A DNA stretch of 64,000 nucleotides, taken from positions 356,686-420,685 of the forward strand of contig JAJEJU010000023.1 in the NCBI GenBank assembly GCA_021390615.1, given 5' to 3'. Positions 49,258-64,000 of the stretch are shown here, piece after piece. Position numbers and translations under genes: made by a program. The DNA comes from Rhodanobacteraceae bacterium ZG21-1. GTDB lineage: Bacteria > Pseudomonadota > Gammaproteobacteria > Xanthomonadales > Rhodanobacteraceae. Below the pieces are notes generated by a model, which worked only from the letters and a program-made list of their open reading frames with translations, searched no databases and was not told the DNA's origin. The first letter of the stretch is position 1; each line of letters begins with the position of its first letter.

Positions 49258-50511
49258 TCAGCTTGTCCGGGTCGCCTCCACCGGCGATACGCGCGAGGCG
49301 CGCATGGCCGGCGCCAATACCGCGCCCTGCCCCAGCAGCAGCAGCAGCAGCATGCCCAGCAGGACGTAAAGCGGAGACAGGCGCTTCATCTCGAAGGCGC
49401 CCATCATCCATTGGTTGAGTCCGACGGCCAGCAGGGCGCCGACGATCACGCCGCCCGCACTGATCAGGAAATTCTCCAGCAGGAAGTAATGCAGGATGCT
49501 CTGCTGAGTCGCTCCCAAGGCGCGGCGCACGCCGATCTGCTTGCGGCGCTGGCCGACCCAGAAACTGGTCAGGCCCACGATGCCGGCTGCCGTCACGATC
49601 AGCAGCACGGCGCTGACGGCGCCCATGAAGGTGGCGATGCCGATATCGGTCTTGTAAGCCTGCGCGCGCACCTCGGCGAATGTACGCACACCGCGGCGGT
49701 CCGGGATCACCCGCATGCGATTGGTGCGGAACAGCGCCTGCGGCACGCTCTTGCTGATCGCTTCCAGTTGGCCCGGCTGCGCCCGCACCAGATAGACATT
49801 GCGCTCGTCGGTAAGCTGGATCGGCGTCAACACGACATAGTCGCTGAATGCGTCGGTCCAGCTGCCGGGCCAAGGCACCTGCAGCTGCTCGACCACGCCG
49901 ATCACCGTGCTCGGCGTGCCGTTCTTGATCAGATAAATCGACTTGCCGAGGATGCTGCCGCCCGGATACAGGCGATCCGCAAGCGCCTTCGTGACGATCA
50001 CCGCCGGCGTGGGAACGAAGGTCTTGGAGTCGGCAGTGGCCACTTCGTCCGAGCGGAAATTGCGCCCTTCCAGCAGCCTGGCCCCCAGCGTCGCCAATGC
50101 ATGATCGTCGGTGGAGTACTGGGCCGCCCTGGTGATCGCCTTGTCGGTCGCCGGGTCCAGCCTTACGCCGGTCACCCGCCCGCCCACTCGCAGCGGAAAG
50201 GAATCGCTGAGCGTCGCGTCGCGCACGCCGGGCAGCTGGCGAATCGCCGCCAGGTCGGTGCGGATCAGCGCAGGCACGGCGTCGTTGCTGGCGCCGACCC
50301 AGCTGTTCTCGATCGCCAGCAGGCCGCTTTCTTCCACCCCGGAGGGGCGCGATATCCGATCGACCCGCTGCTTGATGATAAACAGGGCGTTGCAGACGAC
50401 CGCCAGGGTCAAGGCGATCTGCAAAGTGATGAGAATGGTGCCGGCCTTGTGCTTGCGCAGCGCGGCAAGGATCGGCTCGATCTGCAGGGTCACGGTTTGC
50501 CAGGTCATCAA
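49258..50511 (-). CDS. FtsX-like ABC transporter permease (MacB/LolCE-type topology)
   Basis: It has an N-terminal transmembrane helix (ILITLQIALTLAVVCNALFII), a large periplasmic domain and three C-terminal transmembrane helices with a conserved RRALGAT segment (RKQIGVRRALGATQQSIL). Confidence 0.8.
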   Translation of the reverse strand: MMTWQTVTLQIEPILAALRKHKAGTILITLQIALTLAVVCNALFIIKQRVDRISRPSGVEESGLLAIENSWVGASNDAVPALIRTDLAAIRQLPGVRDATLSDSFPLRVGGRVTGVRLDPATDKAITRAAQYSTDDHALATLGARLLEGRNFRSDEVATADSKTFVPTPAVIVTKALADRLYPGGSILGKSIYLIKNGTPSTVIGVVEQLQVPWPGSWTDAFSDYVVLTPIQLTDERNVYLVRAQPGQLEAISKSVPQALFRTNRMRVIPDRRGVRTFAEVRAQAYKTDIGIATFMGAVSAVLLIVTAAGIVGLTSFWVGQRRKQIGVRRALGATQQSILHYFLLENFLISAGGVIVGALLAVGLNQWMMGAFEMKRLSPLYVLLGMLLLLLLGQGAVLAPAMRASRVSPVEATRTS

Positions 50512-50518
50512 CGCATCC

Positions 50519-61285: not shown

Positions 61286-64000
61286 GTTGATCTCCCGACA
61301 TGGATGCCGTGGGTGAAGCGTTGAGGTCTCGTTTCCTGACCACGCCGGCGCGGCGCTGCTTCGCGGTGCGGTCGGCCAGTTCGCTGCGGTCTAGCTGCCC
61401 GGCTTCGTGGCCCTCGTCCAGATACCTGGCCAGCTCGGCCACCGTCGGATGCTTGAACAGCGCCACGATCGGCGCCTCGACGCCGAGCATCCGCTTGATC
61501 TCCTTGGTCACGCTCACCATGACCAGCGAATGCCCGCCCAGCTCGAAGAAGTTGTCCTGGATACCGACCTGCGGCACCTTCAGGATCTGCGACCAGATCT
61601 GCGCCAGCGTGCGTTCGCTTTCGCTGCGCGGCGCCACATAGCGCGCCTCGCGTCGGCCCTGCGTTTCCGGTGCCGGCAGCGCGTGGCGATCCACCTTCCC
61701 GTTCGCCGTCAGCAGAATCTGCTCGAGCGTCACGTAGGCCGACGGCAGCATGTATTCCGGCAGCTGCGAACCCAGCCAGCCGCGCAGCTCCTCCGCCTCG
61801 ATGCCCTCGCCCACCAGGTAGGCCACCAGGCGCTTGGTGCCGTCGCCGTCCACGCGGTCGATCACCACCGCCTGCTTCACGCCCGGATAGCCGCCCAGCG
61901 CCGCCTCGATCTCGCCCAGCTCGATGCGGTAGCCGCGCAGCTTCACCTGATGATCCGCCCGGCCCAGGAATTCCAGCTCGCCGTCCGCGCGGTAGCGCAC
62001 CAGGTCGCCGGTGCGATACAGCCGGCTGCCGGCGGCGCCGTACGGGTTTGCGATAAAGCGCTGCGCGGTCAGCGACGGCCGCTTCAGATAGCCGCGCGCC
62101 AAGCCTTCGCCGCCGATATGCAACTCGCCCGCCACGCCGATCGGCACCACCCGCTGGCCTTGGTCCAGCACGTACACCTGGGTGTTGGAAATCGGCCGGC
62201 CGATCGCGGCCTTGCGGTCGGTGGCGCCGTAGAAGTCCTTGATGGTGAGGCAGGACACCGTGCTCCACACCGCCGCCTCGGTGGGCCCGTACTCGTTGTG
62301 CAGGCGGACCGACGGCGCCGTCTCGAAATGCAGGCGCCCCAGCGTGGTGGTGAGCTCCTCGCCGGCCACCACCACGGTCTGCAGCGAACGCGGATATTCG
62401 CCAGCGTCGAACAGGGCCTGATAGAGCGACGGCGTGCTGAGCCAGTGCGTCACGCGGCGATCGCGCGCGATCTCGGCCAGGCGCTCGACGTCGCGGTATT
62501 CCGAATCGTCCGGAATCACCAGGGAGCCGCCCAGGGCCAGGGTCCAGAAGATCGAAGCCACCGAGCTGTCGAAGGCGATCGACGGCATCAGCAGCATCAC
62601 CGGCGCCTCCGGCCCGTAGTGGTCCTGGCGCGCGCTCAGCGACGCGCAGGCGCTGCGGTGGGACACCTGCACGCCCTTGGGCCGGCCGGTCGAGCCCGAG
62701 GTGTAGATCACGTAGGCGGCGTTCGCCGGCCGCGGCTTGCCGATCGGCGTGCGCTGCGCCTGTCGCGCGATCATCGGCCAGTCGAGGTCGAGGAAGATGG
62801 CACGGCTGGCATGCGAGGGCAGCTGCTCCTCGACCGCGCCGTGGGTGAGCAGGATCGCCACCCGCGCATCGTCCAGCATGAAGGCCATGCGTTCGGCCGG
62901 GGTCGACGGATCGATCGGCAGATAGGCCGCGCCCGCCTTCAGGATGCCGAGCATGCCGACCAGCATCGTGGTGGAGCGCGGCATGCACAGCGCCACCACC
63001 ATGTCCGGCCCCACGCCCTGCTGATGCAGGTATTGCGCGAGCAGCTCCGCCCGCTGGTCCAGCTCGCGATAGCTCAGCGATCCTTCGCCGTCGACCGCGG
63101 CGGTCGCCTCCGGCGTCTTCTGCGCCTGCGCCTCGAAAGCGTCGTGCAGGCAGCTTTCCTGCGGGTACGCCACGCGTGTCGCGTTCCAGTCGGACAACAG
63201 CAGCCGGCGCTCGCGCGGGTCCAGCAGGTCAAGCTGCTCCAGCGGCGCTTCCGGCCGGGCCACCACCTGCTCCAGCACGCGCAGGTAATGCGCGGCGAAG
63301 CGCTCGATGGTCGAGCGCTCGAACAGGTCGCTGGCGTATTCCAGCGCCCCCTGCAGCCCGGCCTCGGTTTCTTCCAGCACCAGGGTCAGGTCGAACTTCG
63401 CGGTGACGTGCTCGCGCGCGATGCCGTCGAGCTGCAGTCCGGGGATGCCGTACTTCTCCTGCGCCATCCGCTGCAGCACGAACCACACCTGGAAAATCGG
63501 CTGGCGCGAGAGGTCGCGCGCGGAGGTCAGCTCCTGCACCAGGCGCTCGAACGGCAGATCCTGGTGCGCATGCGCCGAAAGCGTGCTTTCGCGGACCTGC
63601 TTCAACAGGCCGCGGAAGCTTGCCGCCTCGCCCACGCGTCCGCGCAGCGCCAGCGTGTTCACGAAGAAACCCACCAGCCCCTCGGTCTGTCGATGCGTGC
63701 GCCCCGCCACCGGCGTGCCCACCACCACCTCGCCCTGACCGCTCCAGCGCGACAGCACCACCTGGTACGCCGCCAGCAGCAGCATGAACAGGGTCACCCC
63801 TTCCTGCCGCGCCAGCTGCCCCAGCTCGGCGCTCAGCCCCGCCGGCACTGCCAGCCGATGGATCGCGCCCCGGTAGCTCGGCACCGCCGGCCGCGCATGG
63901 TCGGTCGGCAGCTCCAGCGCCGGCGGCGCACCGGCCAGCTGCGCCTTCCAGTACGCCAGCTGGCGTTCCAGCACCTCGCCCTGCAGCCAGTCGCGCTGCC
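61278..64000 (-). CDS. Non-ribosomal peptide synthetase (5' end of the gene lies beyond the window edge): C(partial)-A-T
   Basis: The reading frame stays open upstream of the annotated GTG at 63974 and reads ...QRDWLQGEVLERQLAYWKAQLAGAPP..., a mid-C-domain motif. The visible part has an A domain with [52 protein letters not shown] and [20 protein letters not shown], and a PCP with FFELGGHSLVMV. Its stop overlaps the PKS start by 8 bp. Confidence 0.9.
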   Translation of the reverse strand, partial: QRDWLQGEVLERQLAYWKAQLAGAPPALELPTDHARPAVPSYRGAIHRLAVPAGLSAELGQLARQEGVTLFMLLLAAYQVVLSRWSGQGEVVVGTPVAGRTHRQTEGLVGFFVNTLALRGRVGEAASFRGLLKQVRESTLSAHAHQDLPFERLVQELTSARDLSRQPIFQVWFVLQRMAQEKYGIPGLQLDGIAREHVTAKFDLTLVLEETEAGLQGALEYASDLFERSTIERFAAHYLRVLEQVVARPEAPLEQLDLLDPRERRLLLSDWNATRVAYPQESCLHDAFEAQAQKTPEATAAVDGEGSLSYRELDQRAELLAQYLHQQGVGPDMVVALCMPRSTTMLVGMLGILKAGAAYLPIDPSTPAERMAFMLDDARVAILLTHGAVEEQLPSHASRAIFLDLDWPMIARQAQRTPIGKPRPANAAYVIYTSGSTGRPKGVQVSHRSACASLSARQDHYGPEAPVMLLMPSIAFDSSVASIFWTLALGGSLVIPDDSEYRDVERLAEIARDRRVTHWLSTPSLYQALFDAGEYPRSLQTVVVAGEELTTTLGRLHFETAPSVRLHNEYGPTEAAVWSTVSCLTIKDFYGATDRKAAIGRPISNTQVYVLDQGQRVVPIGVAGELHIGGEGLARGYLKRPSLTAQRFIANPYGAAGSRLYRTGDLVRYRADGELEFLGRADHQVKLRGYRIELGEIEAALGGYPGVKQAVVIDRVDGDGTKRLVAYLVGEGIEAEELRGWLGSQLPEYMLPSAYVTLEQILLTANGKVDRHALPAPETQGRREARYVAPRSESERTLAQIWSQILKVPQVGIQDNFFELGGHSLVMVSVTKEIKRMLGVEAPIVALFKHPTVAELARYLDEGHEAGQLDRSELADRTAKQRRAGVVRKRDLNASPTASMSGDQHD

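Follow-up and report, generated by a model that had tools for sequence, protein, structure and literature searches.

The DNA analysed here ('the window') is a stretch of 64,000 nucleotides from Rhodanobacteraceae bacterium ZG21-1 (contig JAJEJU010000023.1). Its right-hand part, positions 49258-64000, carries an operon of non-ribosomal peptide synthetase (NRPS) and polyketide synthase (PKS) genes, and the second NRPS ends in a domain that we call E*. This name is used throughout as a label for terminal domains derived from epimerisation (E) domains in which the Glu and Tyr positions are altered. As a hybrid cluster the locus is an orphan of a familiar kind; what stands out is the terminal domain of E origin, with its remodelled active site. 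The features of the operon, in the order of transcription and with domain limits from Pfam, are:

61278 to past the window edge at 64000, minus strand: NRPS1, 3' part, frame open
~63195-64000, minus strand: NRPS1 condensation (C) domain, partial
~61695-63137, minus strand: NRPS1 adenylation (A) domain
~61419-61610, minus strand: NRPS1 thiolation (T) domain, GGHSL
58181-61285, minus strand: PKS (1034 aa), type I, ketosynthase-acyltransferase-acyl carrier protein (KS-AT-ACP)
~60134-61261, minus strand: PKS KS domain
~58742-59692, minus strand: PKS AT domain
~58334-58519, minus strand: PKS ACP domain, GGDSL
53568-58184, minus strand: NRPS2, C-A-T plus E*
54921-58184, minus strand: C-A-T part of NRPS2, with an N-terminal LSPQQL docking helix
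~56718-58049, minus strand: NRPS2 C domain, HHxxxDG
~55209-56657, minus strand: NRPS2 A domain, code DATKVGEVGK
~54945-55133, minus strand: NRPS2 T domain, GGDSF
53568-54920, minus strand: E* (NRPS2 residues 1089-1538), E-like, Condensation superfamily, terminal
51928-53571, minus strand: predicted non-heme diiron monooxygenase of the CmlA family (547 aa)
50519-51832, minus strand: FtsX-type permease 1 (437 aa), MacB_PCD plus FtsX (Pfam)
49258-50511, minus strand: FtsX-type permease 2, MacB_PCD plus FtsX (Pfam), likely start ATG at 50508

The six open reading frames (ORFs) are co-directional, as an earlier note on this DNA had described, and three of their junctions overlap, again as it had reported. 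The NRPS1 stop codon TGA occupies 61278-61280 and the ATG of the PKS gene, at 61285, lies 8 nt inside NRPS1 with GGGAGA preceding it. The PKS stop and the NRPS2 start (GTG) share the sequence GTGA at 58181-58184. The NRPS2 stop and the ATG of the monooxygenase (hereafter the hydroxylase) share ATGA at 53568-53571, with AGGAGA before. A stem-loop with a perfect 10-bp stem (51893-51918, minus strand) lies just 3' of the hydroxylase stop, in the 95-nt gap before permease 1. The stem-loop, after which there is no T-run, may serve to stabilise the mRNA or as an attenuator, dividing the biosynthetic from the export genes. The earlier note had also named frameshifts and stops as the signs of a decaying locus. 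None of the six genes contains an internal stop, the catalytic motifs of the operon are intact and there is no sign of decay.

The operon is found in synteny in two metagenome contigs, L085 and L079, at 46-80% amino acid identity (69-80% for L085 and 46-71% for L079). In both orthologues, as in the window, the start of the hydroxylase overlaps the stop codon of E* (ATGA). The gaps that correspond to the one with the stem-loop also contain a stable hairpin (L085 12971-13068, z = -4.1; L079 11642-11771), and the sequences differ.

The domain content of the first two synthetase genes is as previously proposed. NRPS1 enters the window with a partial C domain followed by an A and a T domain. The PKS is a minimal KS-AT-ACP protein, which NCBIfam also assigns to type I PKSs: it has no Pfam match to ketoreductase (KR), dehydratase, enoyl reductase or methyltransferase domains, and only ~75 aa separate AT and ACP. 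Its KS triad can be read in the translation as Cys (QSACSSS), His (EGHGTGT) and His (GSIGH). The AT carries GHSVG and HAFH, the second of which we take to be a marker of malonyl specificity. Specificity codes were extracted for both A domains. That of NRPS1, a 10-residue code obtained by comparison with GrsA, is DSA(L/S)VAEVWK. That of NRPS2, DATKVGEVGK, we read provisionally as Asn by the Stachelhaus codes. All the motifs expected of a modular NRPS and type I PKS line are present: the KS triad, the AT GHSxG, the carrier Ser, the HHxxxDG of the C domain, and the A motifs including the A10 Lys. Neither the six proteins nor the sequence downstream gave a Pfam match to a thioesterase (TE; Thioesterase) or a reductase (NAD_binding_4). 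These results support an intact hybrid NRPS-PKS-NRPS operon with a malonyl-specific, non-reducing PKS module.

NRPS2 was described in the earlier note as a C-A-T module ending in a second condensation-like domain in place of a TE. Pfam agrees with this layout. The proposed identity of the last domain, as an ordinary C domain or one of the terminal condensation (C_T) type, did not survive comparison, since it matches E domains far better: PvdL E at 7e-38, TycA E at 7e-27 and GrsA E at 9e-23. Other members of the superfamily score low (C domains at most 31.5, the X domain 28.1 and fungal C_T 26.5). The best matches by both sequence and fold are the E domains of PvdL and of tyrocidine synthetase. 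The structure used was an AlphaFold2 model built from an alignment of 34 sequences; a model from five sequences was poor in the C-lobe (pLDDT 64). Judged from these matches, E* belongs to the epimerisation-domain lineage and appears to be neither an ordinary C domain nor a C_T domain.

The active site is, however, not that of an E domain. E* of the window keeps HHxxxD. It reads QLFHGRE where E domains have EGHGRE, with Leu283 in place of the catalytic Glu, and LNHQGE instead of FNYLG, so that the motif-E7 Tyr becomes His363; NRPS2 ends 8 aa past the domain. For comparison, 281 E-like domains were gathered by searching 1.84 billion representative proteins exhaustively. The motif-E4 Glu is present in all 263 canonical E domains (263/263), and this position is Leu, Met or Thr in E*. 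The motif-E7 Tyr is present in 254 of the 263, whereas all 11 E* domains (11/11) have His. Thus, of the features of a canonical E domain, E* has the fold and HHxxxD, and lacks the Glu (E4), the Tyr (E7) and the D-specific C domain or docking tail.

E* from the window, those of the two orthologues and those of three further proteins (P0253, P0258 and P0271) form a tight, monophyletic clade with 40-65% identity within it. Its median identity to canonical E domains is 25-30%, compared with 41% among canonical E domains themselves. In this clade HHxxxD, the HGR motif and ~90 other positions do not vary. A second E* group bears (M/L/T)HHGR. L087 provides a linking form with HHFAND and LMHHGR, yet with Phe, not His, at the motif-E7 position. 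The dN/dS ratio of E* (window compared with the L085 orthologue) is ~0.17, similar to that of the C and A domains. By these sequence measures E* is a small, separate clade on which purifying selection acts. A protein homologue search with the E* alignment returned short canonical E fragments only.

It might be argued that E* has remained an epimerase and works with other residues, in which case the last residue would become D-Asn and something else would release the chain. E domains are its closest relatives in sequence and fold, the second His and the Asp of HHxxxD are kept, and the NRPS2 module of the window has no other E domain. In addition, the preceding T domain carries GGDS, a carrier motif typical of T domains that serve E domains. 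On the other hand, the Glu that E* has lost is the one present in every canonical E domain of the set, and both the downstream D-specific C domain and the docking tail are absent. Seven proteins (P0253, P0258, P0270, P0285, P0286, P0291 and P0297) have the tandem order C-A-T-E-E*, in which a canonical E domain stands just before E* in the same module. E* is therefore not simply the epimerase of its module, and we consider continued epimerisation improbable.

In the representative set E* is terminal in nine of nine cases, compared with 52 of 263 for canonical E domains (Fisher p = 9e-7). It is usually followed by 0-7 aa, whereas the tails of canonical terminal E domains are 28-45 aa long, and the consensus linker of E domains, TPSDF, is absent. 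Eight genomic contexts could be inspected: the window, L079, L085, L083, L084, L088, the contig of P0270, and L087. In all eight (8/8) the biosynthetic genes end with that of E*, after which come genes for exporters or tailoring enzymes. These include a major facilitator superfamily (MFS) transporter with a resistance-nodulation-division (RND) exporter; an adaptor with an ATP-binding cassette (ABC) ATPase and FtsX; ABC-2; and an RPE65-like gene with two FtsX genes. In L088 the set consists of an outer-membrane factor, an adaptor, an ATPase, two FtsX permeases, a phosphopantetheinyl transferase (PPTase) and LuxI/R. No thioesterase or reductase gene follows the E* gene in any of the eight contexts. 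Neither PF00144 (the penicillin-binding-protein-like cyclase, of the serine beta-lactamase family) nor a TE is encoded within 10 kb downstream in these contexts or in the operon of the window, and the arrangement with a SurE cyclase is thus not seen in the sequence covered. E* itself lies after the last carrier, in the place of a TE, as C_T domains do, and no other domain in the sequence covered is a candidate for chain release.

The amino acid loaded by the terminal module is not constant. Terminal A-domain codes in the E* family correspond, in our provisional reading, to Asn, Phe, aliphatic, Val-like, Thr and Asp-like residues. Release mechanisms that depend on the side chain are therefore unlikely. 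For example, formation of a beta-lactone from a beta-hydroxy C-terminal residue was considered and rejected on account of this variability.

The neighbouring PKS suggests another type of release. In the window, L079, L085 and L083, a PKS without a KR stands directly before the terminal amino acid module, and a PKS of this kind followed by C-A-T is the classic route to tetramic acid precursors. E domains are, by ancestry, carbanion-forming enzymes. E* might then deprotonate the active methylene of a beta-ketoacyl-Asn thioester and close a tetramic acid by a Dieckmann-type cyclisation. This seems very improbable to us. In L084 an additional C-A-T module lies between the PKS and the E* module and in L088 an NRPS gene precedes, so that a beta-keto neighbour is not general. 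Nor did we find a precedent for a Dieckmann cyclase in the C superfamily. Tetramate formation cannot be a general role of E*, since a PKS does not precede every E* module.

Taken over the eight contexts, the best reading of the position of E* is that it fills the functional place of a TE and releases the chain. The idea of the earlier note that a terminal C-like domain releases the product stands in outline, on the strength of position; the lineage of that domain is E and not C_T. Amidation or cyclisation by a C_T domain, which it also put forward, is a conjecture that our results do not support. Release by E* would presumably occur by hydrolysis, intramolecular cyclisation or aminolysis.

The gene next to NRPS2 also required a new assignment. 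It had been called an MBL-fold (metallo-beta-lactamase-fold) hydrolase. An MBL domain is indeed present (Pfam), accompanied by CmlA_N (PF18456), which matches over the full model at E = 3.8e-68. The closest structures in the PDB are 8a90, a non-heme diiron monooxygenase (1.5e-162), and CmlA (~1e-85). The alignment with 8a90 and CmlA shows the motifs HGHQDH, GEHS and ADSD to be shared. The protein is consequently identified, from its sequence, as a probable CmlA-type non-heme diiron beta-hydroxylase, a tailoring oxygenase, and 'hydrolase' should be abandoned. CmlA, HynC, FrsH and the teicoplanin enzyme act on amino acids that are attached to an NRPS carrier and hydroxylate them at the beta-carbon (PMC8252469). 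By analogy, the predicted role here is beta-hydroxylation of an amino acid bound to a T domain. The correction alters the predicted chemistry: a beta-hydroxy amino acid is to be expected in the product. We also considered whether this protein could be a chain-releasing thioesterase resembling glyoxalase II. This is ruled out: it is a full-length CmlA member with its metal motifs kept, and those E* clusters that do not include a hydroxylase still have no TE.

Close homologues of the hydroxylase are few. Named homologues from Dyella, Rhodanobacter, Xanthomonas and Burkholderia are ~50% identical, and at 70% identity or more there are only three non-self clusters among 5.8 billion clustered proteins. 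Plasmid matches do not exceed 51% identity. The best of these, on a plasmid of Burkholderia sp. FERM BP-3421, was rejected as a counterpart: it belongs to an all-NRPS cluster with an MFS transporter, and the architecture differs.

The hydroxylase raises the question of whether E* could be a platform that recruits it, in the manner of interface (I) domains or of the X domain of glycopeptide synthetases. The overlap of the hydroxylase start with the E* stop codon, in the window and both orthologues, would fit such a role. Oxygenase-recruiting domains of the C superfamily do exist (PMC13638107), the X domain recruiting P450s (PMC10510592), and HynC was soluble only if co-expressed with its NRPS module (PMC8252469). 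Nevertheless, a hydroxylase gene is missing beside E* in five of the eight contexts (L083, L084, L088, L087 and the P0270 contig). I domains do not have HHxxxDG (PMC13638107) and stand at the start of the protein (PMC10212144), their partners being alpha-ketoglutarate (alpha-KG) dioxygenases and not diiron enzymes, while E* has HHxxxD and is C-terminal. By these published features E* does not belong with the I domains. Moreover, with E* as a platform the line would still have no release step. A recruiting role is, in our opinion, quite unlikely.

We return to release by E*. In its wider form, the proposal is that the E* domains are a class of NRPS chain terminators not described before, which arose from an E domain and replaces the TE, including in modules where it follows a genuine E domain (T-E-E*). 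This class would occur in scattered proteobacterial and soil-metagenome clusters of a lipopeptide-like type. We put it forward tentatively, with somewhat less than even confidence. Several points weigh against release by E* and against the pathway outlined below. The case for release rests on position and on absence. The sequence upstream of NRPS1 is out of sight in every context and could encode a TE, another NRPS or a cyclase resembling SurE. In L079 the opposite strand carries a second large NRPS gene ~7 kb downstream, and the TubC_N docking domain of the L079 orthologue of NRPS1 implies additional components of the line. The readings of A-domain codes as Asn or His-like are tentative. Leu, Tyr and p-aminophenylalanine are the substrates of the characterised diiron hydroxylases, and Asn is not known to be one for any CmlA family member, so that Asn is perhaps not the target here. 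Our coverage of the literature was partial, and a paper on domains of this type may have been missed. Finally, LgrA provides a precedent for an inactive E-like domain at the end of an NRPS (PMC10510592).

This precedent leads to the alternative that E* is inert, either a relic with a structural or docking role or else a platform, and that the chain is released or transferred by an enzyme acting in trans or by an NRPS outside the sequence seen. E* has lost the Glu and Tyr that are catalytic in E domains. Terminal modules of the surugamide and desotamide lines end in an E domain, have no TE and use a stand-alone cyclase (PMC7459860). The unseen sequence upstream of NRPS1 and the second large NRPS gene near the L079 operon could both supply what is missing. 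An inert domain would not, however, be expected to keep HHxxxD, the HGR motif and ~90 invariant positions throughout a tight clade, or to show a dN/dS of ~0.17. The same substitutions (Leu/Met and His) occur in two separate groups, which is not random decay. E* has no COM or TPSDF docking tail, none of the eight contexts has a PF00144 or TE gene in the 10 kb downstream, and it is hard to see what purpose an inert domain would serve after the E domain of the tandem modules. We therefore regard an inert E* as unlikely, though it is the alternative to which we give most weight.

The whole pathway can then be outlined as an intact orphan NRPS-PKS line with a hydroxylase, release by E* and export through FtsX permeases, a reading for which we judge the chances to be about even. 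It would begin with a large upstream NRPS of some five C-A-T modules that makes a peptide, as the size of its orthologue suggests: the first NRPS of L079 has an N-terminal TubC_N docking domain and a length of 5380 aa, which would suit five C-A-T modules supplied by another partner upstream. This large NRPS, of which NRPS1 is the 3' part, would receive a chain through an N-terminal docking domain, and its last module is the one with the code DSA(L/S)VAEVWK. The KS-AT-ACP protein would then add one malonyl unit. Because this module has no KR, a beta-keto-gamma-amino acyl unit is the expected result. The last module, in NRPS2, would join the chain to Asn, and the translationally coupled diiron monooxygenase would beta-hydroxylate one carrier-bound residue. 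In a line with neither TE nor reductase, E* would take the chain off the last carrier. The two FtsX-type permeases, together with an ATPase encoded elsewhere, would export the product. E*, for its part, has kept the HHxxxD histidine and has lost the second acid/base (Glu to Leu), the E7 Tyr (to His) and the docking tail.

The export genes were correctly described as two orphan FtsX permeases: each has a MacB_PCD core and a C-terminal FtsX domain, and no ABC ATPase gene lies downstream. Together they resemble a divided form of the duplicated orphan permease ADOP. Permease 1 aligns to positions 6-401 and permease 2 to positions 411-802 of the 803-position NCBIfam model TIGR03434, in both cases below the full-length cut-off, as expected of half-size permeases. 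No ABC ATPase, adaptor or outer-membrane partner adjoins the operon in the window, L079 or L085; in L084 and L088, similar permeases sit with an ABC ATPase and an adaptor. Most likely the pair forms a heterodimer like LolC/E and works with an ATPase whose gene lies elsewhere. Separate FtsX/MacB_PCD permease genes occur in pairs with E*-type NRPSs in six of the eight contexts (window, L079, L085, L084, L088 and L087), and an ABC ATPase gene adjoins such pairs in only two of the six.

The earlier note could name no biosynthetic cluster with this gene order and domain set, and no counterpart came to light in the literature searched. This literature, which was covered in part, held nothing specific on terminal, tandem or inactive E domains or on products of Dyella. 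We provisionally regard the cluster as uncharacterised. A motif-directed scan of the Joint Genome Institute (JGI) metagenomes found only three E*-bearing loci. Together with the small number of hydroxylase clusters, this indicates that the operon is rare. A scan of genome contigs with the partial NRPS1 gave generic NRPS matches only, at 51% identity or less, and all protein homologues of NRPS1 that were returned are shorter than 1600 aa.

Two of the related contigs contain additional genes of possible interest. Downstream of the operon in L079 (14642-21644) are genes for two aminotransferases, a flavin mononucleotide (FMN)-dependent dehydrogenase, a protein of the glyoxalase family and an AraC regulator, as well as a second NRPS gene, which is convergent and encodes more than 3400 aa. 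All of them may be part of the same cluster or of a neighbouring one. In L088 (17093-19423), the E*-type cluster ends in a PPTase gene and a LuxI/LuxR pair, which suggests that this relative is under quorum-sensing control.

In the window, the left 41 kb is ordinary chromosome (topA, dprA, purD, fmt, rsmB, lipopolysaccharide genes and rpoD). RpoD (35417-37282) clusters with the RpoD of Dyella at 90% identity and, judged from this protein, the host appears to be Dyella-like. Two features lie between this part and the operon or beside it:

41217-41292: tRNA-Met, between the housekeeping genes and the operon
47959-49122, plus strand: FAD (flavin adenine dinucleotide)-dependent monooxygenase, FAD_binding_3 (Pfam), convergent to the operon

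The interval 41217-47200 starts with the tRNA-Met and continues as a segment of 57% GC, in a genome of 68% GC, whose ORFs are mostly unannotatable. It includes a 433-aa protein with a zeta-toxin domain (45895-47196), the start of which overlaps a 116-aa ORF that has no family match. The earlier note placed a tRNA-associated island here. The tRNA and the low-GC stretch are as it described, and no integrase and no att-like or tRNA-derived direct repeat was found for the segment. The flavin monooxygenase that it mentioned beside the operon is also present. In NCBIfam the protein is closest to Tet(X) (E = 2.8e-46, below the cut-off). An orthologue occupies the same convergent position in L085 (15751-16929, minus strand; 64% identity), and the gene is absent from L079. 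It is possibly associated with the cluster and could be a tailoring or self-protection gene. Two further observations may be recorded. A perfect 18-nt tandem duplication (two copies of TTGGCATTCCAAAGACCA) lies at 41456-41491, ~165 nt downstream of the tRNA-Met. At 7089-8981 (minus strand), an MFS transporter domain and an acyltransferase domain are joined in one ORF of 630 aa.

Orphan NRPS-PKS clusters are known by the thousands and, taken alone, this one would be a routine genome-mining lead. It is nevertheless intact, rare, conserved in two relatives and from a little-explored genus. If E* does release chains, the NRPS toolkit would gain a release mechanism and assembly lines that seem to have no release domain would be explained. 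It would also provide an annotation signature: HH(F)A(N)D, (L/M)xHGR and NH for NY, at the extreme C-terminus. At present, annotation pipelines would call such a domain an inactive E or a generic C domain. In addition, E* would be a compact part for engineering.

A comparison with known systems places these features in context. The canonical E domains of TycA, TycB3, GrsA and PvdL share with E* the HHxxxD motif, the HGR of E4, the GWFT of E5, the Asn of E7 and a GGDS-type carrier before the domain. E* differs from them in losing the Trp of HHxxxDGVSW and, in the tight clade, in having an invariant Asn for Val (HHFAND). Unlike them, it is always C-terminal, usually tailless, and can directly follow a true E domain.

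The C-terminal E-like domain of LgrA is also derived from an E domain, ends an NRPS subunit and does not epimerise (PMC10510592). In that system the chain goes on to LgrB and a reductase ends the line, whereas here no next subunit or release domain is in view. The changes in E* are, moreover, conserved across two groups under purifying selection.

The terminal release domains (fungal C_T such as TqaA, bacterial terminal C domains that attach amines, for example glidonin C13, and HtmB2-CT) resemble E* in occupying the place of the TE, in having the fold of the C superfamily and in keeping the second His. They differ from E* in some respects: fungal C_T domains have SHxxxD (PMC10510592), and the glidonin terminal domain, which adds an amine, belongs to a C-A*-T-TE module (PMC10587159). 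The I domains of siderophore and lipopeptide NRPSs are likewise non-canonical members of the superfamily and have a beta-hydroxylase acting on a carrier-bound residue nearby. They are, however, N-terminal, do not have HHxxxDG and work with alpha-KG dioxygenases (PMC13638107, PMC10212144), and E* mostly occurs where there is no hydroxylase. As for the hydroxylase of the window, it shares with CmlA, HynC, FrsH and Tcp25 the combination of CmlA_N and MBL fold, the HxHxDH and carboxylate ligand motifs and a gene adjacent to an NRPS, and differs from them in that the module it adjoins is predicted to load Asn.

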